Positions 1,895-36,976 of a DNA stretch of 64,000 nucleotides are shown here, one piece after another. The notes below the pieces were generated by a model, which saw only the letters and a list, made by a program, of their open reading frames with translations, had not been told where the DNA came from and did not search any database. The position numbers and the translations under genes were made by a program. The first letter of the stretch is position 1, and the number at the start of each line of letters is the position of its first letter. The DNA is from Alphaproteobacteria bacterium (GTDB taxonomy: Bacteria; Pseudomonadota; Alphaproteobacteria; Rs-D84), in contig WRHR01000002.1 in NCBI GenBank assembly GCA_009783145.1, positions 34,834 through 98,833 on the forward strand, read 5' to 3'.

Positions 1895-2596
1895 TTACCT
1901 TGCTGGAGACAGCCTGATTTCCACGCGCCGGTTCATACGGCGACCCGTATCGTCCTGGGCCGCGATCGGGCGCGCGGCGCCACGCCCGGTTATGAACATC
2001 CGCGACGTGTTGACCTCGTGCTTTGCCAGGAAAATCGCCACCCTTTGGGCCATGTCTGTCGACAGCGCAACCGCCGCGTCCTTGTCCCGCATAGCGTCCG
2101 TATATCCCGCGATTTCCATAAACGTGGCATCGTATTTTTTCAGAACCTTCGCGATGGTCTTCAACATATCCGCCCCGTCTGCGGAGATTTCCGGAGCATC
2201 CGAATACATAAACGAATCGCGCACAAGCAGCAAGACTACATCTGTCCCGACGCGCTGCACTTGGATTCCAGGCTTCAGCAAGGAATCATAAAGCTCTTGT
2301 TCCAACGCCACCATGTATTTGAATACCGCCGGGTCTATATCCGTACGGGCCGATTCCGCACCATAATTGCTGATTACTGATTGCTCATTGCCAATTAACT
2401 TGCCCCCATTGCCCAAGTAAACCGGGCGCTTTGCAATTTTCATAGTATCCGTCATTTCTCCCATGGTCGCCCCGCGAAGAATCGCGGGCCACTGGTCATG
2501 CGGCGGAGTTTTATATGCGACGCAGCCGCATATAAGAGTAAGAGAGTAGAAGAGTAGAAGAGTAGAAAAGAATGATAATAACCGATGTTTTTTCAT
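1895..2596 (-). CDS. OmpA-family peptidoglycan-binding (lipo)protein
   Basis: C-terminal OmpA_C/MotB-like domain (...TDAMRDKDAAVALSTDMAQRVAIFLAKHEV...NRRVEIRL); signal peptide encoded by the repeat at 2525-2640. Confidence 0.7.
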   Translation of the reverse strand: MKKHRLLSFFSTLLLFYSLTLICGCVAYKTPPHDQWPAILRGATMGEMTDTMKIAKRPVYLGNGGKLIGNEQSVISNYGAESARTDIDPAVFKYMVALEQELYDSLLKPGIQVQRVGTDVVLLLVRDSFMYSDAPEISADGADMLKTIAKVLKKYDATFMEIAGYTDAMRDKDAAVALSTDMAQRVAIFLAKHEVNTSRMFITGRGAARPIAAQDDTGRRMNRRVEIRLSPAR

Positions 2597-2640
2597 ATCT
2601 GATTCTCTCCTACTCTCTTACTCTTTTACTCTCATTTAAC
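2525..2640. repeat. Heptamer/octamer-array hairpin element, family C: (agagtaga)x4 / inverted (tactctc)
   Basis: gagtaagagagtagaagagtagaagagtagaaaag ... ctctcctactctcttactcttttactctc; left arm codes LLSFFSTLLLFYSLTL of the 1895-2596 product. Confidence 0.8.
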
Positions 2641-3456
2641 CCAAACCGCCACTTCGTTTTTATCCGCTTTGCGGCAGTAAGTCGCGGCGGATTCAAAGTA
2701 CCCGTTAACGCTGACGCGATCCGCCCAATCCAGCTTTACCGTCGCCAGCCAGCCGCAAGTCTTGAAATCCAGCCCATTCAGCACCAGCGCGAATTCGCGC
2801 ACTCCCGGATGGGCGAATACCGAGAAATCCGCACCCGCCAGCGGGCTTTTTTCTGTTTTCATCACACCAGATTTTACAAGATAGTCGGTGGAGATTCCCC
2901 CAAAATCACGCCGCGCGGCATACAGCAGTTTCGTATTGCTGGCAATCGCTTTCAAGTCTTCGACCGCAACCATGCGAATCTGGCGAGTGCGCACGACATT
3001 ATACATTGATATCGCGCCCGCAGTCATAACACCTGCGATTGCAAGAACGCCCAGCATCTCTATTAGCGAACGACCTGATTGCGACAGGTTGGAGGTTGGA
3101 GGTTGGAGGTTGGAGGTTATTGATTTTGTAGAACTTGAAAGCATCTTTTTTATCTCCTCACAGTCATTGTTGATATTGTTAAACCATTCTTCTGTCAGGT
3201 AATCATTATCTTTTAGCAATTCCAGCCAATACAAAGTTTCGGAACATTCTTTTAATGCTATGTATTGCTTATTTGCAAAATCTTTTCTGCTGCTGGCATA
3301 AGCAGCTTCTGCCAAATTAGCACCGATACTTGTCCCCGATCGTAAAATTTGTTTAGAAAGAATATATTCTTTTTTTTCATCACACAAAAATTTATATAAC
3401 TTTACAACTCGACTGGCAAACTTTTTACTCTTTGTAAAAATCATACTTTCTTTCAT
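2632..3456 (-). CDS. Chimeric ORF: N-terminal four-helix-bundle protein of the 23S-rRNA-IVS protein family (TIGR02436-like) + (TSNLQPP)x3 repeat linker + type IV pilin-like C-terminal half (GRSLIEMLGVLAIAGVMTAGAISMY prepilin motif)
   Basis: Residues 1-110 match the four-helix-bundle pattern (SIGANLAEA...FIALKECSETLYWLELL); AT-rich block 3125-3456; class-III signal motif internal to ORF. Confidence 0.5.
   Translation of the reverse strand: MKESMIFTKSKKFASRVVKLYKFLCDEKKEYILSKQILRSGTSIGANLAEAAYASSRKDFANKQYIALKECSETLYWLELLKDNDYLTEEWFNNINNDCEEIKKMLSSSTKSITSNLQPPTSNLSQSGRSLIEMLGVLAIAGVMTAGAISMYNVVRTRQIRMVAVEDLKAIASNTKLLYAARRDFGGISTDYLVKSGVMKTEKSPLAGADFSVFAHPGVREFALVLNGLDFKTCGWLATVKLDWADRVSVNGYFESAATYCRKADKNEVAVWVK
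3087..3118. repeat. (ggttgga)x4 tandem heptamer repeat, in-frame inside CDS 2632-3456
   Basis: ggttggaggttggaggttggaggttggagg encodes TSNLQPPTSNLQPP. Confidence 0.8.
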
Positions 3457-3460
3457 TTTT

Positions 3461-3492
3461 ACCTCCTACTTCCTACCTCTTACCTCCTACTT
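3461..3492. repeat. Family D (ggaagta/ggaggta) single arm between chimeric-gene start and dnaX stop
   Basis: acctcctacttcctacctcttacctcctactt. Confidence 0.6.
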
Positions 3493-5037
3493 AACCGATA
3501 CAACCTCTGCCCCCGCAAATAGATTCAAAGCGTTTGCAACGGCCGGGTCGGATTCTATTTCCGCTTTTTTTATTTCGCCCGGAGTTTGAAGCGGCTCAGG
3601 CCTTGAAGCCTGCTCTATTTTTTCCAGAGTCCAAGTTTTGCCGGTTTTTTCCAACAAGAACTTATTCAGCTTTATCTGGAAATCGCGATCGTCCCGTCGG
3701 TCAAAGAATTTTATATGCCCATCCGAAAACTCGATAACTTCTATATTGTTGTTCCAATGAGTCATCAGCAGCAATTCTTTTGCATCGGAAAGCGCACAAG
3801 CCAAATCCGCAGGAGAATTTAAAGCCGGAGGCGCGGAATGCGAGGACGGCTCCGGCTGCGCGGCTTTTACGCTTTTCGTTTTGCTTTTTTCGCCTTCGCT
3901 GTGCTGCAACAAAACGGAAACCGGCGGTATGTCCGCGATATGCATCAAGCGCACGAGCAGCATATCGAAGCACTGCTTTTGATTTCCCGCTGCCTGCATT
4001 TCCGGCTGCGCGGCCACCATAACCTGCCATATCCTCGACAAGGTATTTATCCCCGCGGTCTCGACGATTTTTTTGATCTGCTCTTTTTGGTCCGCAGTGT
4101 ACGGCGAGCTTGAAGCGCCGCCGGCGCGCAAGGCCGGATGCATTCTTGTCGCCCAATGAGTCCATTCCATCATGTCAGTCAGCAGCATAGTCAAATCCGC
4201 GCCGTTCGCGTACAGCGCGTCGGCTTTGGCGATCGCCGCCGCCACATCCCCGGATAGCAGAGTCTGCATAAAATCGACAACCACACCGCGGTCCGCGCGT
4301 TTCAGCATTTCCAAGACCGCCGCTTCATCAACCTTGCCCCCCGTCTGCGCGATTGCCTGGTCCAACAGAGATACTCCGTCGCGAGCGCTGCCGTCCGCGG
4401 CGCGGGCAATCAGATCATTCGCGCCTTCGGTCAGCTCTATCTTTTCTTGGTCCGCCATCCAAGCAAAATGCTTCTTTAAAATATCGACCGGTATGCGCAC
4501 CAGATCAAACCGCTGGCAGCGCGATAAAATAGTCACCGGGACTTTGCGGATTTCAGTTGTCGCAAGTATGAAAATAACATGCGATGGCGGTTCTTCCAGA
4601 GTCTTCAACAAAGCATTAAACGCGCTGGTCGACAGCATATGGACTTCGTCGATGATATATACTTTATAGCGGCCGTTCGTAGGGCGATACCCGGCGGCGT
4701 CCAGAATATCGCGCATATTATCCACGCCGGTGTGCGACGCGGCATCGATTTCCAAGACATCGATATGCTGGCCGGCGGCGATCGCGCGGCAGTTTTCGCA
4801 AGTCCCGCAAGGCGTCGCGGTGGCCTTGTCCGCGCTTTGGCAGTTCAAGGCTTTCGCCAGAATGCGCGCGGTGCTGGTTTTCCCGGTGCCGCGTATTCCG
4901 GTGAAGATATATGCGTGAGCAATACGGTCGGTATTGATTGCGGTGGTAAGAGTCTTGACCAAGACTTCCTGGCCGATAAGCGATGCGAAATCCTGCGAAC
5001 GGTATTTCCGCGCAAGAACGGTGTAATTTGTATCCAT
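3487..5037 (-). CDS. dnaX: DNA polymerase III subunit tau/gamma
   Basis: N-terminal clamp-loader AAA+ motifs (GTGKTSTARILAKALNC, Cys4 zinc module CGTCENC, DEVHML). Confidence 0.9.
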   Translation of the reverse strand: MDTNYTVLARKYRSQDFASLIGQEVLVKTLTTAINTDRIAHAYIFTGIRGTGKTSTARILAKALNCQSADKATATPCGTCENCRAIAAGQHIDVLEIDAASHTGVDNMRDILDAAGYRPTNGRYKVYIIDEVHMLSTSAFNALLKTLEEPPSHVIFILATTEIRKVPVTILSRCQRFDLVRIPVDILKKHFAWMADQEKIELTEGANDLIARAADGSARDGVSLLDQAIAQTGGKVDEAAVLEMLKRADRGVVVDFMQTLLSGDVAAAIAKADALYANGADLTMLLTDMMEWTHWATRMHPALRAGGASSSPYTADQKEQIKKIVETAGINTLSRIWQVMVAAQPEMQAAGNQKQCFDMLLVRLMHIADIPPVSVLLQHSEGEKSKTKSVKAAQPEPSSHSAPPALNSPADLACALSDAKELLLMTHWNNNIEVIEFSDGHIKFFDRRDDRDFQIKLNKFLLEKTGKTWTLEKIEQASRPEPLQTPGEIKKAEIESDPAVANALNLFAGAEVVSVK

Positions 5038-6329: not shown

Positions 6330-9212
6330 TTACGGACATGACCCACCGGGTGTTTCCATTTCCAACTGAAAACATTTCGGCACACCATTCAGCTTGCCAG
6401 CCCGAGTTATATAGCTACATCTAAGTCCAGCCGCGACGCATCCTTGCGGACCTTCCAGGTATCCCGTGCAGCTTTCATCCATAAATACCCAAACATAGTC
6501 TTCTGAACTATACGTTGAATGGTGCTCGCCATCACCATCTGCATAAGTGAAGCCATATCCTATAAAACCACAGGCAGGATTTATTGCCGCCCCTATTGTA
6601 AAAAGCCCTGAATCGCATCCGAAGCCTTTTGCCGGACATTGCGAATTACGTTCAACACAAGCCGAATTCTGGCTGGAACCTTGTGGTACTCCGCATATAC
6701 TGCCCAGCCATGTCGTTTCGATTGAACAGCAATGGTTATTGTCTGAATTTGCAGAACAAGTGCAATTCTCAATAAGTTGGCCAATTTCGCATGGCGGATA
6801 AACGCAGGAATTGCCGTTCGACTCTTGCCCTGTCGGACAGCAATACTGATTAATACCGGAAGTGCTTACGTCGCCGGGGCAAGCGCAAGACCCATCCATA
6901 GGGAAGTTTGCCGTCGAGCACTTGGGCTTACAGCCGTCGTCCCATGCTTGCCCGGACGGACAGCAATGTCCATGACTGGCGTTGCTGCAAGAGCACTCGT
7001 CCGTAGCGGGTCCCGGGATCGGGCACGGAGGCTTGCCCGTAACGCAATTCATCCCGTTCCAAATCTGTCCGACACCGCAATCCGGCTGACAACGGTTGAG
7101 GTTAATGTTCCAAACTTCGCCCGGCTCGCAGACGCCGTACGGCAATTCGCAGCGTCCCGAGATTACCAGATACCCGGCTTCGCAGACGCAGCGCTCATTC
7201 ACATAGAATCTCTGCAGACCCGTGTTTGGATCCGTTTGATATATTTGCCCAGGCCTTGGAATCGGCGCACCGACCTGCAACGACACCCAAGATGAATAAT
7301 CCGGACACAGCATCGACTGATAGAAGATATCCGATATGCTTTCTATGCATGTGTTCGGCTCGTCTATCGGACAAGCAACTTGATCGTCCGAGAACACCGC
7401 ATAGCCGCAAGTCAGCGCAACGTTCCGACACGCTCCTTTCAGCACCGCGTACACATTGTTGATATTCGCGTTATTAGACCAAGAATTAATCTGCATAACC
7501 TGCTGCGAATAGCACGCCGAAATTTCCGCCATACAACTGGAAGCGTAATCCGATATGATCCTTTCCTGAGCGGCGCGGATGCTGACCATCGCCCGCTGGA
7601 TATAATTCACCAATATATTATTCTTGTTGTTATACTTGCCGCGGTCGTCGTAAGTAAATGCGCGGCACTTGTCCAAGACCGGGCGGCAAAGGCCGCTGTT
7701 CGCATTGTCCCCCATTCCTATCTTCGAAAGCAGATACCGCACGATGCACTTGCCGTTATTGTTTTGAGCGTCGCAGGCGGAATAGCCGGACATGCTCCAC
7801 GCGCTGTTGATAAAGTTCGCATCTATCAGCGAATTATCATAATTAACCATCATCTTTCTTATCATAGAAATATTCTGGCCCAGTATGACTTCGCCATTTT
7901 CGTCTATGAATCTTTTTGTCGGATCCAAGCATTTCGCCATGTCGGCGCCGCAAACCATGTCGTCCTTCATGCATTGCTCCAAGGCCCCGACGCAGCCCTT
8001 GGCGTCGTACGCATTGTGGTCCTGCAGCACGGCCAGACGCGCCTTTTGCAGCATCTGCGTTGCGCTGCGCACGTTGGATTTAAGGGTATCGTTCATCTTT
8101 TCCAATCCCTTTTCGTACGCGATGCAGTCCTTGTCTATCTCCACGTCATAGCGGCCCGTAACCTGCCCGGTGTTCGCGCCCTTGGCCTTGCATGCGTTTA
8201 TCACGGGCGCGCAGCGCTTTTGCGCCATTTTGAACAAGTCCGTCCCGCGAAGGTTCGCAAACGAGGTATTGTTGTTCAGGCTGAACATTTCCGTAAAGTC
8301 CGTATCCAAATCGAAGTCCAAATCCAAATCCAGTCCGAAGTTGTTGTTGCCTTCCGCCACAAAAGATTCTGGGGTGCGTATCAGCTTTTCGATATCCGAC
8401 AGCATTCTGCGCGATTGGGTTGTGTCGCGGGCGTTCTGCAGTTCCAGCTCCGCTTCGGTGGCGGACATAATCGCGCGGATTTCCGGAGCCGTCAGCCCGA
8501 CATAGCGGATGCGCTGCGCCACGTCGTTCAACTGGCTGTTCGCTTCCTTTACGGCGCTTTCCACTCGCGCGTAAGACGACAAGCGCCCCGAACAGGCGCA
8601 TCGCTTTTGATTCGCGTCGATTACCGCGCAGAACTGATCCATGCAATCCGTGTACTGCACCATGCACGAATCGGTCGCAGCGCTGGTTTCTTCCCAGTTA
8701 AGCGCAGGCGCAGCAGGCGCAGAGGTCGCCGCGCGCGCCGTCAGATTACGGTTTTCGGCGCTTATATTCGAACCGGTTTGAAGGTCCGTGCCGACAATTT
8801 TCGCCCGTCCTCCGACTTCCGCCGTAGTCGGGCGCAAGGTAACCCCCGCGCGCCGCATAGGCGCGGACGCGTTCAGGCTTGCGGCATCGGTGCGCGCGGC
8901 GCGCCCTACTTGACGCGCGGCTTCGGTTATCGGGCTGGCGCGTCCGGATGCGGCCGGGGCCGCGTTCGCAACTTGACGAGATACGACTGCGCCGCGAGGA
9001 GACGGTGTCGCAGCTTGGACGCCAACTGCCGCCGGCTGATTCGCCGTTACGCGCGATACAACAGCGCCTTGGGTTTCAGTCTGATTTTGCGCGGACGAAG
9101 CGGCTGTAACGCCAACCTGCTGGCCTGGAATCGCGCGCGACGGGGCAACGTCAGCGGCCAGCGCCATGCCAGCGCAAAGAGCAAAGAACAAAGAGCAAAG
9201 AGCAAGTCTTTT
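6330..9212 (-). CDS. Large secreted Cys-rich protein B (signal peptide, A/T/G/R-rich disordered region, conserved Cys core, C-terminal Cys-dense repeats)
   Basis: about 960 aa from MKRLALCSLFFALCAGMALA; paralogous to 9215-11356 (YTDCMDQFCAV...RCACSGRL vs YYTCMDEICTA...RCACAGRV). Confidence 0.6.
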   Translation of the reverse strand, partial: KRLALCSLFFALCAGMALAADVAPSRAIPGQQVGVTAASSAQNQTETQGAVVSRVTANQPAAVGVQAATPSPRGAVVSRQVANAAPAASGRASPITEAARQVGRAARTDAASLNASAPMRRAGVTLRPTTAEVGGRAKIVGTDLQTGSNISAENRNLTARAATSAPAAPALNWEETSAATDSCMVQYTDCMDQFCAVIDANQKRCACSGRLSSYARVESAVKEANSQLNDVAQRIRYVGLTAPEIRAIMSATEAELELQNARDTTQSRRMLSDIEKLIRTPESFVAEGNNNFGLDLDLDFDLDTDFTEMFSLNNNTSFANLRGTDLFKMAQKRCAPVINACKAKGANTGQVTGRYDVEIDKDCIAYEKGLEKMNDTLKSNVRSATQMLQKARLAVLQDHNAYDAKGCVGALEQCMKDDMVCGADMAKCLDPTKRFIDENGEVILGQNISMIRKMMVNYDNSLIDANFINSAWSMSGYSACDAQNNNGKCIVRYLLSKIGMGDNANSGLCRPVLDKCRAFTYDDRGKYNNKNNILVNYIQRAMVSIRAAQERIISDYASSCMAEISACYSQQVMQINSWSNNANINNVYAVLKGACRNVALTCGYAVFSDDQVACPIDEPNTCIESISDIFYQSMLCPDYSSWVSLQVGAPIPRPGQIYQTDPNTGLQRFYVNERCVCEAGYLVISGRCELPYGVCEPGEVWNINLNRCQPDCGVGQIWNGMNCVTGKPPCPIPGPATDECSCSNASHGHCCPSGQAWDDGCKPKCSTANFPMDGSCACPGDVSTSGINQYCCPTGQESNGNSCVYPPCEIGQLIENCTCSANSDNNHCCSIETTWLGSICGVPQGSSQNSACVERNSQCPAKGFGCDSGLFTIGAAINPACGFIGYGFTYADGDGEHHSTYSSEDYVWVFMDESCTGYLEGPQGCVAAGLRCSYITRAGKLNGVPKCFQLEMETPGGSCP

Positions 9213-9214
9213 CA

Positions 9215-11356
9215 TTACCATTCGTGCGGCACGCATTGCCCGCCTTGGGTTTTGTACCCGTTGAAGCATCTGCATCCGATTTTCACGCATCCGTTCGTAC
9301 CGCCCGAGGTGGAAGTAATGCCATCGGAAGAAATGCCTTCGCAGACCGCGCTATAATCCGAATACGGAGGACACATCACGACGCCGGGGCCCCAGCCCGT
9401 GCCGAAGTCGCGGATAGAGCCTTCGCCATGCACGCCCGGCGTTTCCCGCAGGCAGCTTTCGCGCAACGATGCCGAGCTTTGTCCGCCAACCGCCGTTATG
9501 ACGTTCAGGATTTCCGTCAGCCGGACCACATTGCGGCAGTTATTGATGCTCCAATCCTGCGAGTTATTGCAACTGCCGGTGCTGTCCGGAACATCGATAA
9601 TTCTGCCCGCGCCTTGGCCGCATACCATGGTGTCATAGCAGCTTGGGACCTCCGAGCTCTGCGAGCAATAATTCCTTACGCGCGCCACGGTCCAATTCGG
9701 GTTAGACCGGTTCTGCTGGTCAAAGCAGTCATATATTTCATTGACGCAGTTCTTATAGTTCTCCTTGGCAGTCGCCAATTCGTTCGCCGTGTTCGTCGTT
9801 TCTTCCTGCGCGAACTCCAGACGCTTTTGCTGCAAGTATTGCGTCGCGGCGATCTTCTGATACGCCATGTTCGTCGCTTGCTTTTTCAGCTCTTCCCCAT
9901 ACAGGTCGCAATCCGCGTTCGCGTCCAGCGCATACTTTTGCAGGATGGAACGGCGCGCGTCCGCAACCGGGCGGCGCAAGTTCGCGTACGGGTCGCCGCT
10001 GGACGTCGTATAGCCATAGCACGCCGCGCTGGTGTTGCCGGTATAAGAATTTCCGGGGTTAACGAAGTTCAAATCGGACCCGTCGTTGCTGACGGTGATA
10101 GTGCTGTTAAGATTATACGGCCCGGTGGTGCCGCCGTACGATCCGCACGCTTCATAGATTCCGTTAAAGCAGGAATCCAGAACTCGGTTGCAGACGTTGT
10201 TGTGCCCGTACTGGAACAGCTGGTATCCCCAAAGCCTCGCCAGAAAGTCCGCCGACGTCTCGGTATTGAACAGGTTTATATCCGCCATCTGGCCCACTAT
10301 ATCGCTGACGTTCATGAACGAGTTGAACAAGTTGCCATCGTTGCTGCCCGTGATAACATTGATTTGGTTTATGGTGCTGGCATAGGTCTGCAGGTTCGCC
10401 AAGATATCGGAATCCGCGCCGTTCAGAACGCTCATAAACTCATTGAAGCTGTTCAGCCCCAGCGCGCCGTTGGTGCAGTACGAAGGCGGAGTCGTCGCAT
10501 TGCATGTCTCGCTGTATCCGGCGGTCTGTCCCATCATATGGTTGTTGCACCAGTCGGTCATGTTCTGCCCTGTGGTTTTCGCATCGCGCCAGGATACGCA
10601 GTTCAGGGTCTTTTCCGCATCGGTAAGTTGGAACGCCTCGTTCATGCTCTTGCCCCTGGTCATAATCAGCATAGACAGCTGGCCCGAAACTTTCAGCAAG
10701 TCTTCTTTCGCCTGCTGCAGTTGAGCCTCGACATTGGAAAAGGTCTTTACGCGTCCGGCGCAGGCGCAGCGGCGCTGGCCCGGATTGCGCGCGGTGCAGA
10801 TTTCGTCCATGCAGGTGTAATAAGATTCCAAACAGTTGGCGTAAGCGTCCGCGGAAATCAAGCCCGTGGTCGGATCTATTATGTTGGAATAAGTTCCCGT
10901 ATACAGCCTGTTCTGCAACAAGGTGTTCGAAGCGCTGACTCCGGCGCTGGCGCGGATCGGCACATCTCTCAGCGATATGCGCGCCTGGCTCGCGCCCGCC
11001 GGCATTGTTGCGGTACGCGCGGTGACACTGCGCGCCGGACTGCCGGGACGCGTCACTACATTTCTGGGGGTCGCGGCTGAAGCGGCATTCCCGCGCTGCG
11101 CCACGCCGCGCGAGGTCTGGCCGGTTGCTGCCGTGCCTCGGCTGGTCCCGGTTGTCGCGCCGGCTTTCGCCGCCGCCGATGTCGTTTGGGCACGTCCGGT
11201 GCGATTGTTCGCGGCGCCCGAGCGCCCGGACTGCGCGGCCGCAGTGGTCTGCGCAGGCACTGTCTGGTCGTACCCGGCAATCGGATCACCCAACGCTGGC
11301 AACGCAAAAGCGGCGCAAAGCGCAAACGCAAAGTATACAAAAAACCGGCTTTTCAT
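9215..11356 (-). CDS. Large secreted Cys-rich protein A (paralog of B)
   Basis: 713 aa, signal peptide MKSRFFVYFAFALCAAFALPALG; 4-bp overlap with downstream paralog suggests an operon. Confidence 0.6.
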   Translation of the reverse strand: MKSRFFVYFAFALCAAFALPALGDPIAGYDQTVPAQTTAAAQSGRSGAANNRTGRAQTTSAAAKAGATTGTSRGTAATGQTSRGVAQRGNAASAATPRNVVTRPGSPARSVTARTATMPAGASQARISLRDVPIRASAGVSASNTLLQNRLYTGTYSNIIDPTTGLISADAYANCLESYYTCMDEICTARNPGQRRCACAGRVKTFSNVEAQLQQAKEDLLKVSGQLSMLIMTRGKSMNEAFQLTDAEKTLNCVSWRDAKTTGQNMTDWCNNHMMGQTAGYSETCNATTPPSYCTNGALGLNSFNEFMSVLNGADSDILANLQTYASTINQINVITGSNDGNLFNSFMNVSDIVGQMADINLFNTETSADFLARLWGYQLFQYGHNNVCNRVLDSCFNGIYEACGSYGGTTGPYNLNSTITVSNDGSDLNFVNPGNSYTGNTSAACYGYTTSSGDPYANLRRPVADARRSILQKYALDANADCDLYGEELKKQATNMAYQKIAATQYLQQKRLEFAQEETTNTANELATAKENYKNCVNEIYDCFDQQNRSNPNWTVARVRNYCSQSSEVPSCYDTMVCGQGAGRIIDVPDSTGSCNNSQDWSINNCRNVVRLTEILNVITAVGGQSSASLRESCLRETPGVHGEGSIRDFGTGWGPGVVMCPPYSDYSAVCEGISSDGITSTSGGTNGCVKIGCRCFNGYKTQGGQCVPHEW

Positions 11357-11421
11357 AAAAAACCCCTTCCCTATATTCGTTTTATTATATCATAAAAACT
11401 AACTGAGTGAAAGCGTTATCA

Positions 11422-11508
11422 ATGACTAATGACCAATGACTAATGTTTAATGACCAATATAAGCGCCCATTAGTCATTCGTCATTTATCATTGGTCATTA
11501 GTCATTAA
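11422..11508. repeat. Heptamer-array hairpin element, family B (second copy)
   Basis: caatgactaatgaccaatgactaatg ... cattagtcattcgtcatttatcattggtcattagtcatt. Confidence 0.8.
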
Positions 11509-11536
11509 AAAATCGCCGCGAATACGGCGATTTTAT
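11509..11536 (-). terminator. Intrinsic terminator (aatcgccg-cgaata-cggcgatt + U-tract on minus)
   Basis: Hairpin plus T-run directly after the stop of 11537-11965. Confidence 0.55.
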
Positions 11537-11965
11537 TTACTCTTCGTCATTCGTTCCGACGACCTCTTCAATTTCTATCTTGCTTGCTTTCCATTCGGAT
11601 TTTTTAGCCTCGCATTTCTCGCCTCTATCGCCTTCTTTGGCGTCGCAATTCCATTCTTTTTTCATGCCGTCTTTTTTATCTTTCCATTTGGCTTTTTCCC
11701 CGGCTTTTTTATCCTTCCATTCTTTCTTCTTGCCTTCTTTTTTAGCTTTCATTTCGGCTTTCTTGGCATCTTTCGTACCTTTGCATTCCGTCTTTATGCT
11801 TTCGCGTTCTTGGGTCGCCTCTTCCGTGCCGGTGTACGATTTATCGGTAATCTCTACTGTCGCCGGCTCCTTTTTCTTGCCCAGGAAATCAAACATGCCG
11901 GCACTTGCCGCCGATATACCGATAACCAAAGCCAACCCCGAAATCATAACTTTTCTCATAAGCAA
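11537..11965 (-). CDS. Small secreted Lys/Glu-rich repeat protein (EWKDKKAGEKAKWKDKKDGMKKEW)
   Basis: 142 aa, signal peptide, internal K/E repeats with spaced Trp and Cys. Confidence 0.4.
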   Translation of the reverse strand: MLMRKVMISGLALVIGISAASAGMFDFLGKKKEPATVEITDKSYTGTEEATQERESIKTECKGTKDAKKAEMKAKKEGKKKEWKDKKAGEKAKWKDKKDGMKKEWNCDAKEGDRGEKCEAKKSEWKASKIEIEEVVGTNDEE

Positions 11966-12024
11966 TCTCCTTTCTGCTGTTGCTGAAGCACTCTAGCATT
12001 AATCGCTAAAAATGAAAAGCTGTT

Positions 12025-12237
12025 TTATCTGCCAAAGCCGAGTTCTTTTAACTCTTTCTTATATTTTTGAAAGTTCGGGCATTTTGACTGGTCGCAGCCG
12101 GCGCTCCAGAACCCGCAAGTTTCGCAGGGATTCCGGGGGCGCTGTAAATGGGCTGAGCCCGGCGGGGGGCCAAATTCCGACATTCTCGTTTCTTTTGTTA
12201 GAAGCATCAAAGACTGTAATAAAAAATTTCGCGACAT
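12025..12237 (-). CDS. Possible small Cys-rich zinc-binding protein (CETCGFWSAGCDQSKCPNF)
   Basis: 70-aa ORF, CxxC...C...C spacing; weak. Confidence 0.2.
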   Translation of the reverse strand: MSRNFLLQSLMLLTKETRMSEFGPPPGSAHLQRPRNPCETCGFWSAGCDQSKCPNFQKYKKELKELGFGR

Positions 12238-12440
12238 GCATCAGGAAAGGATTCAACCGCCCATTTTGCCGATATTATGAACATTTTCATACAACTATAA
12301 AGAGATGGACGCAAAATAAACAACCAATATTAGTTAGGAATAATTGCGTACAATTGTAAGTTGTATCTTTCCAACAATTCGCGCGCAGGATTTGTTTTAG
12401 CCCTCAAAACATGGTACAATAGCATCAAAAGGAGGGGGCT

Positions 12441-12716
12441 ATGAGCTACTTAACAATAATCCGCAATATAAGAAACACATTATTCAAAGTATTTTTGATA
12501 AACATTTTGTTTGTTATCGTATTTTGGGTATTCGCGATGCTGGATCTGATGCAGTACTTTATATGGGCGCTGCCCGGCTGGACATTGGAAATGACCAATG
12601 ATTATATCATATGGCTGATCGGGCTTATAGAAGTTGTAAACCTTGTTCTGTTCCTGGCGCCGACCTTGGCGCTGAGCTGGGAAATCGGCCGCGTAAAGCC
12701 GAAGAAAAAGAAATAA
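12441..12716 (+). CDS. Small membrane protein (2-3 TM)
   Basis: 91 aa hydrophobic; aggagggggct SD 6 nt upstream of ATG. Confidence 0.35.
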   Translation: MSYLTIIRNIRNTLFKVFLINILFVIVFWVFAMLDLMQYFIWALPGWTLEMTNDYIIWLIGLIEVVNLVLFLAPTLALSWEIGRVKPKKKK

Positions 12717-12747
12717 AAATTCCGCCGGATGGCGGGATTTTTATTCT

Positions 12748-13158
12748 TTATTTTTTTCTTTCGCCATATTGTTCCATCAACTGTTTGTCTATAGTCCTCC
12801 TTGCCGCGCTTCGCAATGCAAGCCATAATTTATACTTGTCGCAGTCGCATTCTCTCGGATCGCAATTCCTGCAATTTTTATGAGAACCGCAGCCGATTTT
12901 ATCCTCAATATCCACATTGGAAATACGCTGAACGGCGCGGCACACAGTATCGGCAATTTTACTACCCTTCTTTCCGCCCGCTTCTTGGCCAAGATAAGCT
13001 TCATCAAGACGCTTTGCGTCATCGAAATAACCGGCAGGCATTGTTTCTGCCCATTCTGCATTTGTTAACTTATCCCCGTCGTTATTAAACATAGCATTTC
13101 TCTTTTTTCCCCGCCAAAAACTCTCTTCCGTTAAACCTGGGCTGATTGTACAATACAT
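12748..13158 (-). CDS. Hypothetical protein with C-terminal Cys cluster (CGSHKNCRNCDPRECDCDKY)
   Basis: 136-aa ORF. Confidence 0.3.
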   Translation of the reverse strand: MYCTISPGLTEESFWRGKKRNAMFNNDGDKLTNAEWAETMPAGYFDDAKRLDEAYLGQEAGGKKGSKIADTVCRAVQRISNVDIEDKIGCGSHKNCRNCDPRECDCDKYKLWLALRSAARRTIDKQLMEQYGERKK

Positions 13159-13180: not shown

Positions 13181-13207
13181 AAAAAATCCCGCTATGAAAG
13201 CGGGATA
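13181..13207 (-). terminator. Native rrn operon intrinsic terminator (aucccgcuuucauagcgggau + U7 on minus strand)
   Basis: Classic stem plus U-tract; lies just beyond a degenerate copy (13225-13258) of the 23S-5S spacer hairpin. Confidence 0.6.
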
Positions 13208-13258
13208 ATATTGTCGGTTTTTATGCTTGTCCGCCGAAGCCTTGGCGAAAGCGGATTA

Positions 13259-13284
13259 ACAGAAATTGGTTCTGGCGACGACCT
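13259..13284. repeat. 26-bp direct repeat = duplicated 3' end of the 5S rRNA gene (right junction of the inserted cassette)
   Basis: acagaaattggttctggcgacgacct identical to 15868-15893. Confidence 0.9.
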
Positions 13285-13286
13285 GG

Positions 13287-13889
13287 TTATGCACTCATAA
13301 TACTATCCACCAATTTATGGATTCCAGCAAGCTTAGACGCCTCATACTCCTTGCCATCCGCATTGCTAAGCCCCCAGCTCCTGGCCGTATCTTGTGCCAA
13401 TTCATACCTTTTCATCATGTCCTCGAAGTTAAACTTTGCTCCATCACTATGGTCATACCCAGGCATTATTTCTTCTAGCTTCTTTTGGCACTGATGTCTT
13501 GTCGTTGGGATATCAGAAGGCGGAACATAATGTGATAACGCCCATGCTTCTATACACGGCGTATTCAATGCTATTTGTACTTTTGGCCTATTGGCAACCG
13601 AATTGCTTTCCTTTGCCTTTTGATATGCCAGTCTTACTCTTTCCGCTTTATCATCGTGATCAAACACGCACCAATATTCTACGCTTTTCTCTATTCGCTT
13701 ATCTTTGACAAAAGATACCATTCCCTCAACAATCTTCAATGGATCCGTATGCTTGTGGGGTTGAATTTGAAGCATACATCTTGGATTTAATTTACTAATC
13801 GCATCCAAATACCTTGGTTCGGAATTCACTCCCTCACAAATCACATATACTGTTTTGGTAATCAAAGGTCTACTTGGCGGGCATCTCAT
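13287..13889 (-). CDS. RloB-like protein (AbiLii-like component)
   Basis: N-terminal VYVICEGVNSEPRYL matches the RloB (vICEGxtEpnYf) signature; 20-bp overlap with the upstream ATPase gene. Confidence 0.6.
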   Translation of the reverse strand: MRCPPSRPLITKTVYVICEGVNSEPRYLDAISKLNPRCMLQIQPHKHTDPLKIVEGMVSFVKDKRIEKSVEYWCVFDHDDKAERVRLAYQKAKESNSVANRPKVQIALNTPCIEAWALSHYVPPSDIPTTRHQCQKKLEEIMPGYDHSDGAKFNFEDMMKRYELAQDTARSWGLSNADGKEYEASKLAGIHKLVDSIMSA

Positions 13890-15192
13890 CCGTATTCTCC
13901 GCAGATTTTACACCATCCAAAAAGAGATGCGCCCCTAAAAAGGGAATTGCACCATATACGCCATTCAGATACCCTCTTTCCACATCTTTGTCTTTGCGGG
14001 GGGCAAAATCTGCCAACGAATATAATTTCGAGGAATGGTCAAAATCTTTTTTTACAAACCAAATTTCATCATCACGCCATATATCCTGAATATCCATTAG
14101 CAGCGTGTTATGCAAAGATACCAATATTTGTGAACCATTTTTATTATCTGCCAATAATTGCTGCAATAAGCGCTTTACAATGAACGGATGCAGAGAGCTA
14201 TCAAACTCATCAATTATCAATAAAGCGCCTTTTTGATAATTTTTAAAGTTATATAACGCCAAAGCAAGATGTATTAGCCTATTCGTCCCGGTAGATAGTT
14301 CTGACAACTCAAAATACTCGTTCTCGACTTTGATTTTCAACTTCTCTCCTTTCGCCTTTCCAGATGCAACATCAAATGTAAAAACATAGTAGTCTTCACC
14401 ATCCATATATGATAGAGCATCGCCGAATTTTACAGGTGTCGTATATTTGGACGGCTTACTCTTTAACAATTCATTTGTTAAATCATCTGAAATTTTTACA
14501 AATTCCGCGCACTGAATACCAACATCGGATTCTTGCAATAACCTATTTAAAAATTCGGGAAAACTACTCTGTGTGTTATAAACATTATAGAATGACGACA
14601 TCTTGACCTTGGTCTTATCGTTGAAAAGCAATATGGCCCCAAAAAATTCATATAAATTTTCTATATGATCTCTATACGACCAATCAATGCTATTGAGGCC
14701 GTCAGTATCTAATTTGCGAATATAAGACATTCGATCCGCAACGGTTTTATTTTCTCTCGACCAATTTCCACCACATTCGACCTTGCCTTTTGAGCGACGA
14801 AATATCAATTCAGTTTGCGAGTCGTCTTTTATCAGTTCAAATTTCTCACTAACAAATTCCGCAGGTCTGATCTTCATTTCATACAAATACTTTTTGTTGC
14901 TCCATATAAAGCTGATTTTAAAAACCGATTCGTTATTTTCGGAAAATCTGAATTGGCTTGCCTTTACATTCAACGAAGAAATATCATCCATTTCTATCAA
15001 CAAACTTAACCAGCTCAATGAATTCATAAAATTTGATTTTCCGCTCGCATTTGCACCATAAATTACTGCTCCTGATAAGTATTCATCTGAGACAATATGG
15101 TCCAAGTGTTGTCTGCTGCCGGTTTTTTCAAAACTAATCTCTTGTTCGGAATCAAACGAGCCAAAATTTGACACGGAATATTTCACAAGCAT
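13870..15192 (-). CDS. AAA_21-type ATPase (AbiLi-like / RloA-like component)
   Basis: Walker A GANASGKSNFMNSL, Walker B LLIIDEFDSSLHP typical of AAA_21. Confidence 0.7.
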   Translation of the reverse strand: MLVKYSVSNFGSFDSEQEISFEKTGSRQHLDHIVSDEYLSGAVIYGANASGKSNFMNSLSWLSLLIEMDDISSLNVKASQFRFSENNESVFKISFIWSNKKYLYEMKIRPAEFVSEKFELIKDDSQTELIFRRSKGKVECGGNWSRENKTVADRMSYIRKLDTDGLNSIDWSYRDHIENLYEFFGAILLFNDKTKVKMSSFYNVYNTQSSFPEFLNRLLQESDVGIQCAEFVKISDDLTNELLKSKPSKYTTPVKFGDALSYMDGEDYYVFTFDVASGKAKGEKLKIKVENEYFELSELSTGTNRLIHLALALYNFKNYQKGALLIIDEFDSSLHPFIVKRLLQQLLADNKNGSQILVSLHNTLLMDIQDIWRDDEIWFVKKDFDHSSKLYSLADFAPRKDKDVERGYLNGVYGAIPFLGAHLFLDGVKSAENTDEMPAK

Positions 15193-15487
15193 GATTAACC
15201 CCTTTTATAAAAACTTCGTAAGTTTATCTTAATCGTTACACCAATGTCCGAAAAAATCAAGCAGAAAATACGATAAAGTCGCAAAAAAACAAACACTCTT
15301 GCTATTCTCGATTTTTTCGCATTCTTTATTTGACTTTTCCGTAATAGTGTTGTATAATAAAAAAGAATCACCCGAAATGGATGATTCTTCCAAAACCGGA
15401 ATCAACAAATGGCAACTCAATTTCGGCTTAAAGCACCCTGATTATGCCATAAGATGATTCTTAAAACAACAGGTATTTTGACCACAT

Positions 15488-15826
15488 GTGCAAAATACCG
15501 CATACCAAAAACAAAGGATTTATCTAATGGTATATGTAATTAATGCAACCGGCAATTATCCAAAAGATTGCCCGCCTCAATACGATTCTTGGATCGATTA
15601 CTGGATAAAAAAACGCGGCCTGATACCCGAGTGGTGTAGACACTGCAAAACGAACACGAAAGAATTAGATGGCGGCCATGTACGAATTGTAGAACAGGGC
15701 CCGGACGGAAAATGGTATTATAAAGGCGAAACCTTGTATATCGTCCCGATTTGTCGCGGATGCAATAATCCTAACAACCAAGAAATTTTCTCAGTATCAG
15801 AAACAGACTTGGTTCCTGTACCATAA
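15488..15826 (+). CDS. Small HNH-like (bba-Me) zinc-finger nuclease candidate
   Basis: CRHC ... LDGGHV ... N ... IVPICRGCN spacing resembles CxxC-H-N-CxxC HNH cores. Confidence 0.4.
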   Translation: MQNTAYQKQRIYLMVYVINATGNYPKDCPPQYDSWIDYWIKKRGLIPEWCRHCKTNTKELDGGHVRIVEQGPDGKWYYKGETLYIVPICRGCNNPNNQEIFSVSETDLVPVP

Positions 15827-15829
15827 AAA

Positions 15830-15853
15830 ACGCCCCAAAAGGGGCGTTTAATT
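15830..15853. terminator. Bidirectional intrinsic terminator (aaacgcccc-aaaa-ggggcgttt), now terminating 5S/rrn on minus
   Basis: Perfect hairpin with A-run one side and T-run the other. Confidence 0.65.
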
Positions 15854-15876
15854 CGGTTTTTATGTTTTACAGAAAT

Positions 15877-15995
15877 TGGTTCTGGCGACGACCTACTCTT
15901 CCGTGGCTTAAGCCAAAGTACCATTGGCGATGCAGGGTTTCCCTGTCTGGTTCGGGATGGAACAGAGGGTGGCTCCCGCTCAATAATCACCAGAA
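15877..15995 (-). rRNA. rrf: 5S ribosomal RNA
   Basis: ...CCAUCCCGAACCAGACAGGGAAACCCUGCAUCGCCAAUGGUACU...GGAAGAGUAGGUCGUCGCCAG; flanked by 16-nt inverted processing arms 15870-15885 / 15989-16004. Confidence 0.85.
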
Positions 15996-16155
15996 CCAAT
16001 TTCTGCGCTTGTCCGCCGTAGCTTTAGCGAAGGCGGAAACATCGTAATTCAAAATATCAAAGAATCCATTCTTTCAACATACTCTTCAAGCATTCTGTTT
16101 GATTTCACGGCGCGCGAGGCGTCATGAAATCAAACAAAGATAAAAAGTCGATCAT

Positions 16156-19027
<2,872 letters not shown>

Positions 19028-19062
19028 TTTATCCAATGCTTGAAGAGTAGGTCGTAACGCGA

Positions 19063-19603: not shown

Positions 19604-19680
19604 TGGTGGGTCAGGAAGAACTCGAATCTTCGACCTCCGCTGTATCAGAGCGGCATTCTAACCAACTGAACTACTGACCC
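19604..19680 (-). tRNA. tRNA-Ile (anticodon GAU), CCA encoded
   Basis: Cloverleaf; anticodon loop CUGAUAC. Confidence 0.85.
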
Positions 19681-19685
19681 AAACT

Positions 19686-19761
19686 TGGTGGAGCCAATCG
19701 GACTCGAACCGACGACATCCACGTTGCAAACGTGGCGCTCTACCAGCTGAGCTATGACCCC
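19686..19761 (-). tRNA. tRNA-Ala (anticodon UGC), CCA encoded
   Basis: GGGGUCAUAGCUCAGCUGGUAGAGCGCCACGUUUGCAACGUGGAUGUCGUCGGUUCGAGUCCGAUUGGCUCCACCA. Confidence 0.9.
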
Positions 19762-19889: not shown

Positions 19890-21585
<1,696 letters not shown>

Positions 21586-21939
21586 TTAGAAAACTTGTTT
21601 GTTTGTCCGTGCACTAAACTAAACTGACATTGAATGTTAGTTCGTTTTACTATTTCGCAAGACAAGTATTTTAACGAGGCCACAAAATTTTGTAACCTAC
21701 TACCTGTCTAGGATATGCACTATGACAATTGTCAAAGTTTGGATTTTCCCAAATTCAACTGTCTGCACATCCCTTCTTTTTATGATTTGTATTTTGCAAC
21801 GCAAAACACCCATCATAAATCTTGATGAGCTGCTTTATTCACAATGTTGCGATTTTTCCTGGGACAACGAATCGTGTTGTTTCCATAAAACCGCAGAATT
21901 TCAGGGGTTGAAGCTTTTGTTCCAACTTGAAAGCCCGCA

Positions 21940-30525: not shown

Positions 30526-31062
30526 TGTTATTAACCATCCCAACAGATACGCCGCAACGCCGATGCTGATGCAAATGTCCGCCACATTGAACGCCGGCCA
30601 GTGAAATCCCCTCACGTGAAAATCTAAAAAGTCGATCACCGCGCCAAAGCGGATGCGGTCTATCAGATTCCCCAAGGCCCCGCCGATTATCAGCGACAAT
30701 GCTATGCGCTCGTACTTTTCTTTTGCGCGAGCGAACAGGTGATAAGCCAGAAAGCCTATTATCGCGCCCGTCAGCGCGATTATAACAAACGGCGCCGAGC
30801 TCCCCAGCGCACGGAATAATGAAAAGCTGGTTCCCGGATTCCAGACGAACACGAACTTGAACCAGGATGTCATAGGCAGACTCAGCAAGTCTGCGCCATG
30901 CACGACCATGCCTCCATTGCAAAATGGCGAGTGCAAGTCGCATGCGGCGCCGAACCAATGAAATCCGACCGGAGACATTGTCATAATCCAGCCCTTGGTC
31001 AATTGGTCGAGAACGACCACCAAAAGAATAAAGAATAAAGAATAAAGAATAGATTTCTTCAT
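30511..31062 (-). CDS. lspA: Lipoprotein signal peptidase II
   Basis: 183 aa, 4 TM, conserved Asp blocks; N-terminal MKKSILYSLFFIL coded by an (aagaata) array. Confidence 0.8.
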   Translation of the reverse strand: MKKSILYSLFFILLVVVLDQLTKGWIMTMSPVGFHWFGAACDLHSPFCNGGMVVHGADLLSLPMTSWFKFVFVWNPGTSFSLFRALGSSAPFVIIALTGAIIGFLAYHLFARAKEKYERIALSLIIGGALGNLIDRIRFGAVIDFLDFHVRGFHWPAFNVADICISIGVAAYLLGWLITRSRK

Positions 31063-31142
31063 ATATCAACCTTTTGATTGGGGCATTATAACGGAAAACT
31101 TCTGCAATACAAATGAAATATGGCAGAAGAAGCGGGGTCGCA

Positions 31143-31252
31143 GTTCCCCTCCTGTGGAGGGGTGGCCGCAGGCCGGGGTGGTTCTTGTAATCTGCGAAAA
31201 TTAAACGAACCACCCCGTCGGCTACGCCGACACCCCTCCACAGGAGGGGAAC
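31143..31252. mobile_element. RPE-like palindromic element, intergenic copy
   Basis: cagttcccctcctgtggaggggtgg...ggggtggttcttgtaatctgcgaaaattaaacgaaccacccc...cacccctccacaggaggggaac. Confidence 0.85.
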
Positions 31253-31267
31253 ACCACGGCGCAAATT

Positions 31268-35707: not shown

Positions 35708-35834
35708 GTTCCCCTCCTGTGGAGGGGTCGGCGAAGCCGGGGGTGGTTCGGGTAATGTTCGTATGTTGTGTATAATTTCGTGCATTACATAAACCACCAC
35801 GGCCCTTTGGGCCACCCCTCCACAGGAGGGGAAC
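35708..35834. mobile_element. RPE-like palindromic element, intergenic copy 3
   Basis: gttcccctcctgtggaggggtcgg...ggggtggttcgg...accaccacgg...cacccctccacaggaggggaac. Confidence 0.85.
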
Positions 35835-35863
35835 ACCACCACACGAATTTCAGAATATTTTAA

Positions 35864-36976
35864 TCAATGAAACACAAAGCAATCTATCTGCTGCGTTTTG
35901 GCCGCCTGGCATGCGCTCTGCGCCGCGCTTTCCGACAGGCCGTTCGCACGCACGCGGAACATTCCGCTGGGGGAAGGCTCAACCACCGCTGACAGTCCTG
36001 TAATATTACGAACGCGCGTCACTTGCGATTCTGCGGCCGCCCGTGATCCGAAAGCACCAAATTGAACGCCAGTCCCGCCCGCGTTTTGCACGGGAACAAT
36101 TGCCGCGGGCTTGCTTAACGGCTTCGTTACGGCCACGGGCGGCGGCGCATAATTATTCTGCACCGCAACCGGCGCCGCGCCAGTTCCTAGTATTGTAAAT
36201 CCTTTATCCAGCATCCTTGTCGAAACCGCGGCGCGAATATCCTTGGTTTGCGCGCCCAGAACAACGCTCATCACGCGCCGACCGTCGCGTTTGGCTGTTG
36301 CCACCAGCGAATATTTGGACTTGTTCGTATATCCTGTCTTCATACCGTCGCATCCCGGATACGACGCCAGCAGCCGGTTCCCGTTGGTATAAGTCTGCCC
36401 GTTATAAGTCCAGCTTTGAATCCCGAAATATTTCCAATATTGCGGGAAATGCTTGTAAACCGCCATAGACAGCAATGCGATATCGCGCGCGCTTGACAGG
36501 TGGTCGTCGTCCGGCAATCCGGACGAGTTCTCGAAATTAGTCTTGGAAAGCCCGATTTCCGTCGCGACCTGTGTCATCAATGACGCGAAGTTTCCCTCCT
36601 TTCCACCCTTCAGGTTTTCCGCCAAAACCCGCGCGACATCATTCGCGCTGTGCACCGCGACGGCTTTTATCGCGTCTTCAACCCTTATCTTCGACCCCGC
36701 GGCCAGGCCCAGTTTTACAGGCAAAGCATTCGCCGCGCTTTGCGAAACGATTAAGTGGTCGTCCAGATTAAGACGCTTGTGCTCCAACGCGTCGAATGTC
36801 AGATACAGCGTCATGATTTTCGTAAGAGATGCCGGATAATTCAGGTCGTTCGCGTTCTCGGAATAAAGCACTTTGCCCGTATCCAAGTCCGCGACAAGCA
36901 CGGCGTTATAGTCGGCTGCAAACGCCGATACCGAAAGAATAAAGAATAAAGAATAAAGAATAAAGAATCTCTTCAT
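35864..36976 (-). CDS. dacA: D-alanyl-D-alanine carboxypeptidase (PBP5/6 class) with C-terminal SPOR domain
   Basis: SxxK (ASLTK), SxN (SAND), KTG motifs; C-terminal VQFGAF...SPOR-like; signal peptide MKRFFILYSLFFIL from a repeat arm. Confidence 0.8.
   Translation of the reverse strand: MKRFFILYSLFFILSVSAFAADYNAVLVADLDTGKVLYSENANDLNYPASLTKIMTLYLTFDALEHKRLNLDDHLIVSQSAANALPVKLGLAAGSKIRVEDAIKAVAVHSANDVARVLAENLKGGKEGNFASLMTQVATEIGLSKTNFENSSGLPDDDHLSSARDIALLSMAVYKHFPQYWKYFGIQSWTYNGQTYTNGNRLLASYPGCDGMKTGYTNKSKYSLVATAKRDGRRVMSVVLGAQTKDIRAAVSTRMLDKGFTILGTGAAPVAVQNNYAPPPVAVTKPLSKPAAIVPVQNAGGTGVQFGAFGSRAAAESQVTRVRNITGLSAVVEPSPSGMFRVRANGLSESAAQSACQAAKTQQIDCFVFH

Follow-up and report, generated by a model that had tools for sequence, protein, structure and literature searches.

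The window analysed here is a stretch of 64,000 nucleotides (nt) taken from the forward strand of contig WRHR01000002.1 (positions 34,834 to 98,833; assembly GCA_009783145.1), which belongs to an uncultured gut alphaproteobacterium of order Rs-D84. Two overlapping genes on its minus strand (positions 13287-15192) encode an ATPase and a RloB-like protein. They probably constitute an intact anti-phage operon of the AbiL type, in which the ATPase is associated with a RloB nuclease, carried by a foreign cassette of 2.6 kb at the 3' end of the 5S rRNA gene. A preliminary description, made without database searches, had already recognized an AbiLi/AbiLii-type architecture in this region and regarded the pair as cargo. 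Both views were borne out by profile searches (Pfam AAA_21 and RloB, PADLOC AbiLi and AbiLii) and by the foreign composition of the genes, their flanking direct repeats and their absence from 80 related species.

Organization and identity of the gene pair

The abiLi-like gene (13870..15192, minus strand) encodes a 440-aa ABC-type ATPase of the AAA_15/AAA_21 class with a Rad50/SMC-like head, and the abiLii-like gene (13287..13889, minus strand) a 200-aa RloB-family (Toprim-like) putative nuclease effector. The two are adjacent on the same strand, in the order ATPase then RloB, and overlap by 20 bp (13870-13889): the second gene starts with ATG at 13889-13887 and the first ends with TAG at 13872-13870, in agreement with the arrangement initially described. 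The RloB start codon is preceded by a GGAG Shine-Dalgarno sequence located 6-7 nt upstream, and that of the ATPase by AAAGGGG.

The first protein matched Pfam families AAA_21 (E = 1e-23, 85 bits, cut-off 27), AAA_15 (6e-11) and SMC_N (40.0 bits, exactly at the cut-off). AbiLi was by far its best PADLOC model (E = 2.1e-68, 229 bits), the next-best one reaching 83 bits, i.e. ~150 bits lower; lower-scoring ATPase models were PDC-M12A, AriA, MADS3, HEC-01A, GajA, PtuA and Old. NCBIfam yielded only sub-threshold fragments for MAD3, RecF and ABC transporters. The latter were negligible (E ~0.003-0.007 and ~16 bits vs cut-offs >260), and matches to RecF and ABC transporters spanned only the common P-loop and signature motifs. 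The Walker A (GANASGKSNF, residues 46-55) and Walker B (LLIIDEFDSSLHP, residues 324-336) motifs reported earlier were both present. An alignment of 53 homologs displayed invariant residues in Walker A (G46, G51 and K52), the signature (S300 and G302), Walker B (D328 and E329), the D-loop (H335) and the H-loop (H361), all of which are kept in the window protein, and a conserved C-terminal tail (...GYLxGxYGAIPFLG, residues ~405-418) was shared by this protein and its homologs.

The AlphaFold (AF2) model built on the same alignment was of high confidence (predicted local distance difference test, pLDDT, 90.8; predicted template modelling score, pTM, 0.88), and its nearest solved folds were Rad50, SMC heads and PtuA from Septu and retron systems. 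The modelled 440-aa protein displays only a short insertion, with neither a long coiled coil nor a hinge, and is therefore not an SMC protein proper. The SMC_N match and the Rad50/SMC-like fold follow from the known ancestry of AAA_15/21 defence ATPases. A Pfam scan of the neighbouring open reading frames (ORFs) revealed no permease or membrane partner.

The second protein matched Pfam RloB over positions 2-194 of 195 (E = 2e-24, 87 bits, cut-off 31.5) and PADLOC AbiLii (3.7e-15); these were the only families it matched in the respective collections. The N-terminal RloB signature VICEGVNSEPRYL was found at residues 16-28, as previously noted. Relatives were gathered from the loci of ATPase relatives and gave a set of six proteins that includes the 'RloB family protein' of an E. 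coli plasmid and the Abi protein of a Lactococcus prophage. At 17-45% identity, E19 and G20 (of the 'CEG' motif), E24, D77 (of 'FDHDD'), E114 and W116 were invariant in these six partners; E19, E24, D77 and E114 are the acidic residues of Toprim type, and D79 is also present, in the RloB Toprim Asp-x-Asp region. Word-indexed homolog searches with RloB, and likewise with the small neighbouring orf99 (see below), returned self-matches only.

These motif and family matches are far beyond chance. Judged by its sequence, the pair is a member of the AbiL/RloAB-type ATPase and Toprim systems that is recognizable by standard annotation, and NCBI designates the two products 'ATP-binding protein' and 'RloB family protein' in an Alphaproteobacteria metagenome-assembled genome (MAG). 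An identical ATPase was encountered in five independent metagenome assemblies (ENA, Logan and JGI; source samples ERZ27257320, ERZ27257305, SRR5248970, SRR6220664 and JGI 3300002504), with 100% identical DNA over up to 11.5 kb; these stretches (contigs L001-L005, L014 and L015) represent one clone of the organism sampled repeatedly.

Relatives of the pair

More than 3,400 ATPase homologs were found at E<1e-5 in the databases searched, the closest one besides the protein itself displaying 47% identity. Wherever the contig of an examined relative was long enough, RloB was encoded downstream of the ATPase by an overlapping or abutting gene, in unrelated neighbourhoods. Pairs with overlapping genes were found at 41-47% identity, and the same order and overlap were conserved in L006-L013, L132 and plasmid L127. 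Such conserved pairing across contexts is what is normally seen with mobile defence modules of two genes.

According to tblastn, the ATPase occurs on 174 plasmids and in a few prophages. Its members there were only 24-29% identical to the window ATPase. Mobilizable E. coli plasmids of 3.9 kb carry the ATPase and a 'RloB family protein' as their sole cargo. Lactococcus prophage proPhi7 carries the two genes behind its lysin gene, each annotated 'abortive phage resistance protein'; the ATPase of this pair, which was compared here rather than that of the pND861 prototype, aligned over its full length with the window ATPase (24% identity, E = 1e-19). An AbiLi scan of species-representative genomes retrieved no relative; the GTDB representatives of the clade thus lack the family at close range.

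A foreign cassette at the 3' end of the 5S rRNA gene

The pair is located directly downstream of a complete rRNA operon and on the same strand. The 5S rRNA gene (15880..15994, minus strand, identified with Rfam) is the last gene of this operon and its 3' end is the insertion point. The right direct repeat, DR-A (15853..15894), is composed of the last 15 nt of 5S and a 27-nt trailer ending in CATAAAAACCGA on the minus strand. The left one, DR-B (13214..13284), starts 2 nt past the RloB stop codon and consists of a displaced 5S tail and trailer interrupted by a 30-nt hairpin (13226-13255). Their exact core is 26 nt long (13259-13284 is identical to 15869-15894), and 13214-13225 is also identical to 15853-15864. 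This 26-nt match was among only a few repeated 25-mers in the window, none being expected in shuffled sequences. The repeats (26 nt exact, 42 nt interrupted) bracket an insert of 2.6 kb composed of the AbiL pair and orf99.

Alignment with the closest relatives showed that their native layout is 5S, spacer, CATAAAAACCGA and terminator. The window holds the module of 5S tail and trailer twice, each copy with its own terminator. A bidirectional intrinsic terminator (15828..15849) is located between the 5S trailer in DR-A and the stop codon of orf99; its hairpin (ACGCCCCTTTTGGGGCGT) differs very little from the native terminator that follows 5S in one of the two nearest termite-gut relatives (L022), and it insulates the cassette from rRNA read-through. 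The intrinsic terminator that follows DR-B downstream of abiLii (13186..13206, minus strand) is probably the original terminator of the rRNA operon, now ending the abiL operon.

The G+C content at third codon positions (GC3) was 0.38-0.41 in the insert genes vs 0.57-0.72 in the surrounding host genes. For comparison, 80 syntenic loci were collected from species-representative genomes with a conserved 713-aa secreted protein encoded downstream (p713) as query. In about 28 of them the 5S gene and the p713 homolog were both present, in this order and separated by 1.6-10 kb, and none of the 80 contained AbiLi, RloB, orf99 or the three small ORFs that flank the insert. The foreign origin and the precise boundaries of the cassette are thus well supported, and its composition, which is still strongly foreign, suggests a recent acquisition.

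An exact search for the 5S tail of this species in JGI metagenome contigs gave nothing, and every contig bearing the flanking 114-aa protein also carried the insert, so that the island-free allele was not found. The predicted empty site would have the 5S body joined straight to ...TTAATCCGCTTTCGCC... No recombinase is encoded in the insert, whose only products are AbiLi, RloB and orf99. Possible routes of entry include a site-specific recombinase acting in trans, homology-facilitated illegitimate recombination anchored on the rRNA operon, and Campbell-type re-integration of circles.

The stretch from p713 to the insert (11537-13158) is occupied by the three small ORFs, of 140, 91 and 114/136 aa, none of which has a Pfam match; the 114-aa ORF displays a foreign-like GC3 of 0.42. 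Their lack of homologs in the 80 related loci indicates that the variable region extends beyond the repeat-bounded cassette. A GC-rich hairpin of ~27 nt (GTCCGCCGAAGCCTTGGCGAAAGCGGA and variants) occurs within the left repeat (13229-13255), in the 23S-5S spacer (16011-16037) and at 63780-63806. A related hairpin (..GCCTTGGCGAA..) is found in the repeat module of L034 (described below), and a different one at the same position in L022. The GC-rich hairpin could represent a small mobile element or a processing element.

Comparable insertions in related species

Cargo bracketed by a duplicated 5S trailer was found in three species, namely the one studied here (AbiL and orf99) and those represented by loci L034 and L043. 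In L034 (URSJ01000003.1, positions 2303-4303, a human-gut MAG of uncultured Rickettsiales UMGS1304), a 100-nt module is present in two copies, 96% identical and 1,901 bp apart, in which the 5S end (last 12 nt) is followed by a spacer, hairpin, TAAAAACCGA and terminator. They flank a single low-GC gene whose 558-aa product displays Schlafen AlbA_2, HATPase_c_4 and winged helix-turn-helix (wHTH) domains and weakly matches PADLOC defence models. In L043 (termite-gut MAG Pcl387_bin15, 6583-7764), a 31-nt repeat of the 5S end and trailer (90% identical) surrounds an insert of 1.15 kb with small ORFs and with a 47-nt repeat that contains the palindrome TTGTCCTTTATAAAGGACAA and occurs three times.

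Other loci displayed further cargo in the same interval. A Dam-like methylase and a neighbouring gene directly follow 5S in L040, and an Eco57I-like methylase is present in the 5S-to-p713 gap of L056 and L083. In the two nearest termite-gut relatives (L024, 1703-2725, and L022, 728-1780), the first post-5S gene encodes wHTH, HATPase_c and DUF4325 (STAS-like) domains and occupies the position held by the AbiL insert in the window. The closest AbiL pair, from the same clade (L006, 1779-3699; 47% (AbiLi) and 44% identity), also resides in this interval, 1.7 kb from 5S and between VIT1 and Pur_DNA_glyco. The gap between these two genes measures 7-112 bp in six relatives and is filled by the AbiL pair in L006. 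The G+C content of that pair is 0.38 vs 0.53 in its flanks, and no repeats flank it. No recombinase was detected in the subset of 5S-proximal gap ORFs scanned in relatives.

The 5S-to-p713 interval is thus a clade-wide variable region that has repeatedly received defence-type cargo. A general preference of AbiL cassettes for 5S was ruled out, as other relatives lie in unrelated contexts and the L006 pair is 1.7 kb away from 5S. More tentatively, the 3' end of the 5S gene in Rs-D84 could be a dedicated landing site, at which small recombinase-less cassettes, often devoted to defence, would be captured via duplication of the module 5S tail - spacer - hairpin - TAAAAACCGA - terminator. If true, such cassettes would be mobilized in trans or by homology-anchored recombination, a kind of capture that is not known to have been described for 5S rRNA genes.

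The insert resembles the islands found at tRNA and tmRNA 3' ends, including integrase-less remnants and cis-mobilizable cassettes, in that foreign cargo lies beside the 3' end of a stable RNA gene and is flanked by direct repeats. As these repeats recreate the RNA 3' end, the 5S gene stays intact. It differs from them by its target (5S rRNA), its size of only 2.6 kb and the lack of an encoded integrase; in addition, the two repeat copies in the window differ by the 30-nt hairpin and in their terminators.

orf99 and the divergent intergenic region

The third gene of the insert, orf99 (15527..15826, plus strand), is divergent from abiLi and encodes a small Cys-rich protein with the motif CxxC...GGHV...YIVPICxxCNN; an alternative GTG start at 15488 would extend it to 112 aa. 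It belongs to a family of ~100-aa proteins (149 cluster representatives) sharing the motif CxxC...GGHV...YIxPLCxxCNN, relatives of which were found in 30 viral contigs, including phages of 118-196 kb. Its resemblance to HNH proteins was weak (PDB 4h9d at E = 0.11 and few Pfam members), and its model (pLDDT 96.7) had no significant structural neighbour and no HNH-like fold match. Among the AbiL relatives, orf99 was never seen to adjoin the pair elsewhere. It is treated here as a zinc-binding co-passenger and not as a component of the system.

The divergent intergenic region between abiLi and orf99 (15193..15526) contains a sigma-70-like promoter for orf99 (TTGACT-17-TATAAT, 15330-15358, plus strand), followed by a stable hairpin with a 13-bp stem (15361-15391). 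The stretch 15193-15530 folds more stably than shuffled sequences (z = -4.8), and no Rfam family reached threshold in the insert when structured RNAs, antitoxin RNAs or riboswitches were sought.

Proposed mode of action and relation to known systems

The AbiL system was first defined in Lactococcus, as an abortive-infection pair of genes that takes effect after phage transcription. It blocks lactococcal phages and was grouped with PARIS, OLD and Gabija as an association of an ABC ATPase with a TOPRIM nuclease (PMC13064643, PMC11464382). By analogy with OLD, Gabija and PARIS, the ATPase in complex with RloB would keep the nuclease inactive and serve as the infection sensor. A phage cue would change the state of the ATPase, and RloB, freed or activated, would then cut nucleic acid (DNA or RNA) and thereby abort phage replication. 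The second gene would be translationally coupled to the first. The operon did not evolve in place, and makes up a foreign cassette together with the unrelated small zinc-binding ORF.

Like AbiL of Lactococcus lactis and other RloA/RloB-type pairs, the window pair displays the ATPase first, the RloB/Toprim-like protein second and overlapping genes. It differs by its chromosomal position at the 3' end of 5S, instead of a plasmid or prophage, and by its host, an uncultured gut alphaproteobacterium with a reduced genome. PARIS (AriA and AriB) similarly combines a separate ABC ATPase with a Toprim-type effector, and AbiL was placed in the same ATPase tree (PMC11464382). Membership in PARIS was nevertheless ruled out, since the effector is RloB and not DUF4435 according to Pfam and PADLOC; AriA models matched the ATPase at 1e-21, far below the AbiLi score, and AbiLii was reported to superpose poorly on AriB (PMC13064643). 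The trigger (Ocr) and substrate (tRNA) of PARIS are not assumable for the window pair, and a 2026 review left undecided whether the mechanism of PARIS also applies to AbiL and RloAB (PMC13064643).

OLD (P2 Old, class 1) and GajA of Gabija (class 2) share with the pair an ABC ATPase and Toprim chemistry with its acidic Glu/Asp metal-binding set, and the Old and GajA models of PADLOC weakly matched the window ATPase. In these systems, however, a single polypeptide comprises both ATPase and Toprim, and a UvrD-like helicase (GajB) is additionally required in Gabija. Both were discarded because the window displays two separate ORFs and no helicase in or beside the insert. The solved structures that most resembled the ATPase model included PtuA of the Septu and retron systems PtuA-PtuB (E ~1e-11 to 1e-12). 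Septu was rejected as well, the partner being RloB and not HNH, and orf99 being divergent, not AbiL-linked elsewhere and devoid of an HNH fold match. Finally, an assignment to RloAB as found in the type I restriction-modification (R-M) loci of Campylobacter was not retained, since neither the insert nor the tested neighbouring ORFs displayed R-M domains.

Alternative explanations

Several points weigh against reading the pair as an anti-phage operon with these roles. A scan for abiLi promoters found no strong sigma-70-like candidate on the minus strand, and the five metagenome copies are all identical and hence carry no population signal of purifying selection. Comparison of RloB with solved structures, using both the single sequence and a four-sequence profile, gave no significant match, and to our knowledge no AbiL structure exists. 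The Toprim assignment accordingly rests on Pfam and PADLOC, on the conserved acidic residues and on published structure predictions (PMC13064643). AbiLii from F. nucleatum was toxic when expressed alone in E. coli, which is consistent with a nuclease effector, but in the only toxin-antitoxin (TA)-type test of an AbiL homolog AbiLi did not neutralize this toxicity (PMC3985639), so that a simple model in which the ATPase holds the nuclease inactive may be wrong.

The same experiments bear on the view that the pair is a selfish addiction module, with RloB as toxin and the ATPase as its direct or indirect antidote, stabilizing itself and the adjacent DNA. This is rather unlikely. The toxicity of isolated AbiLii fits it, as do the 3.9-kb mobilizable plasmids, of which the pair is nearly the sole cargo (a typical niche of addiction modules), and the description of PARIS as working like a type II TA system (PMC13064643). 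The failure of AbiLi to counteract AbiLii argues against it, however, and so does the phage-resistance phenotype of the lactococcal prototype (PMC13064643); addiction and defence are, moreover, not mutually exclusive. A lower probability still is given to a silent or decaying relic of an old insertion that has lost its function. The host genome is reduced, the insert retains no recombinase, the scan for an abiLi promoter was negative and a truncated ATPase homolog exists elsewhere (P0009, 276 aa). Both ORFs are nonetheless of full length, with all catalytic motifs intact and with ribosome-binding sites and a terminator, and reduced genomes quickly delete useless DNA, while the strongly foreign composition suggests that the cassette was acquired recently.

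It is highly improbable that the pair is an RloAB-type accessory of an R-M locus, operating jointly with R-M enzymes instead of alone as an Abi system. It is true that RloB owes its family name to R-M-linked ORFs (PMC13064643), and that methylases occur in the same 5S-proximal variable region of L040 and L056. Yet there is no R-M gene in the 2.6-kb insert or its flanks, where the neighbours have no Pfam match; orf99 is neither a methylase nor a restriction enzyme, and relatives of the pair are also found in places devoid of R-M neighbours. That the ATPase is a housekeeping SMC, RecF or ABC-transporter protein with only an incidental RloB neighbour is effectively refuted. Such an origin might have been suspected from the SMC_N score at threshold, the weak NCBIfam matches and the Rad50/SMC-like fold. 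Those matches remain far below curated cut-offs and are confined to the P-loop and signature motifs, whereas the AbiLi model stands apart from all others; the protein has no coiled coil of SMC length, hinge or membrane partner, its pairing with RloB is conserved across hosts, and the gene is absent from all 80 related genomes. The preliminary description had named an ATPase of a transporter or SMC family, or a second protein outside the RloB/Toprim-like families, as outcomes that would speak against it, and had proposed profile and PADLOC searches; these searches assigned both proteins to the expected families. An AbiL-type anti-phage operon remains the preferred reading.

Host and other features of the window

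Related genomes were labelled Ca. Enterousia, 'Rickettsiales bacterium' or Alphaproteobacteria MAGs and came from termite, ruminant, chicken and human guts; one of them, KS320-82, comes from the study that characterized order Rs-D84 (PMC12306168). Genomes of this order are mostly <1 Mb and a probable lifestyle of obligate symbiont or parasite was reported (PMC12306168). The host-restricted look noted in the preliminary description fits the small genomes and the proposed partner-dependent lifestyle of Rs-D84 and Ca. Enterousia (PMC12306168).

The rRNA operon is encoded on the minus strand and comprises 16S (19890-21586), tRNA-Ala, tRNA-Ile, 23S (16139-19031) and 5S (15880-15994). Its spacer tRNAs (19604-19761) are arranged in the order 16S - tRNA-Ala(TGC) - tRNA-Ile(GAT) - 23S. 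Most bacterial rRNA operons display Ile followed by Ala, i.e. the reverse. The 16S gene is 1,697 nt long vs 1,533 nt for the model, and contains an insertion of ~175 nt near 16S position 72 (V1/helix 6). This insertion (21333-21515, minus strand), which was absent from five related species, forms an extended hairpin of very high stability (-93.8 kcal/mol for 211 nt, z = -11.2) and could correspond either to an expansion segment or to an intervening sequence.

Two adjacent genes (6330-11356) encode large Cys-rich secreted proteins without Pfam match, p986 and p713. Relatives of p713, among them loci L016-L095, turned up in at least 216 stretches from various species of the clade, which makes p713 a conserved lineage-specific surface or secreted family. 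An AT-rich imperfect palindrome (11416-11511) with 43-nt arms, 81% complementary and composed of AATGAC[TC]AAT units, separates the p713 start from the stop codon of the Lys/Glu-rich 140-aa ORF. Heptamer tandem repeats (AAAGAAT)n were found at ~31023 and ~36934 (stretches 31023-31260 and 35813-36960), together with an exact repeat of at least 27 nt (CACCCCTCCACAGGAGGGGAACACCAC) at 31231 and 35813. These arrays and the CACCCCTCCACAGGAGGGGAACACCAC repeats may delimit another rearranged segment. Further heptamer arrays were (AATTAGC)n near 112 (112-147) and (AGGTTGG)n near 3086 (3086-3118).

Significance

The module itself adds little, since AbiL-type pairs of ATPase and RloB are widespread and NCBI labels are already in place, but a compact and diverged pair could be a useful extra subject for structural work on AbiL. 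The most interesting part is the context, that is a recombinase-less cassette at the 3' end of a 5S gene and the recurrence of a duplicated trailer. The presence of fresh defence DNA in a lineage of ~1-Mb genomes, for which dependence on a partner has been proposed, suggests persisting phage pressure and shows that foreign DNA is still taken up. The geometry of the insertion may point to a simple, recombinase-free way of acquiring and swapping defence cassettes in tiny genomes, with the rRNA operon as anchor.

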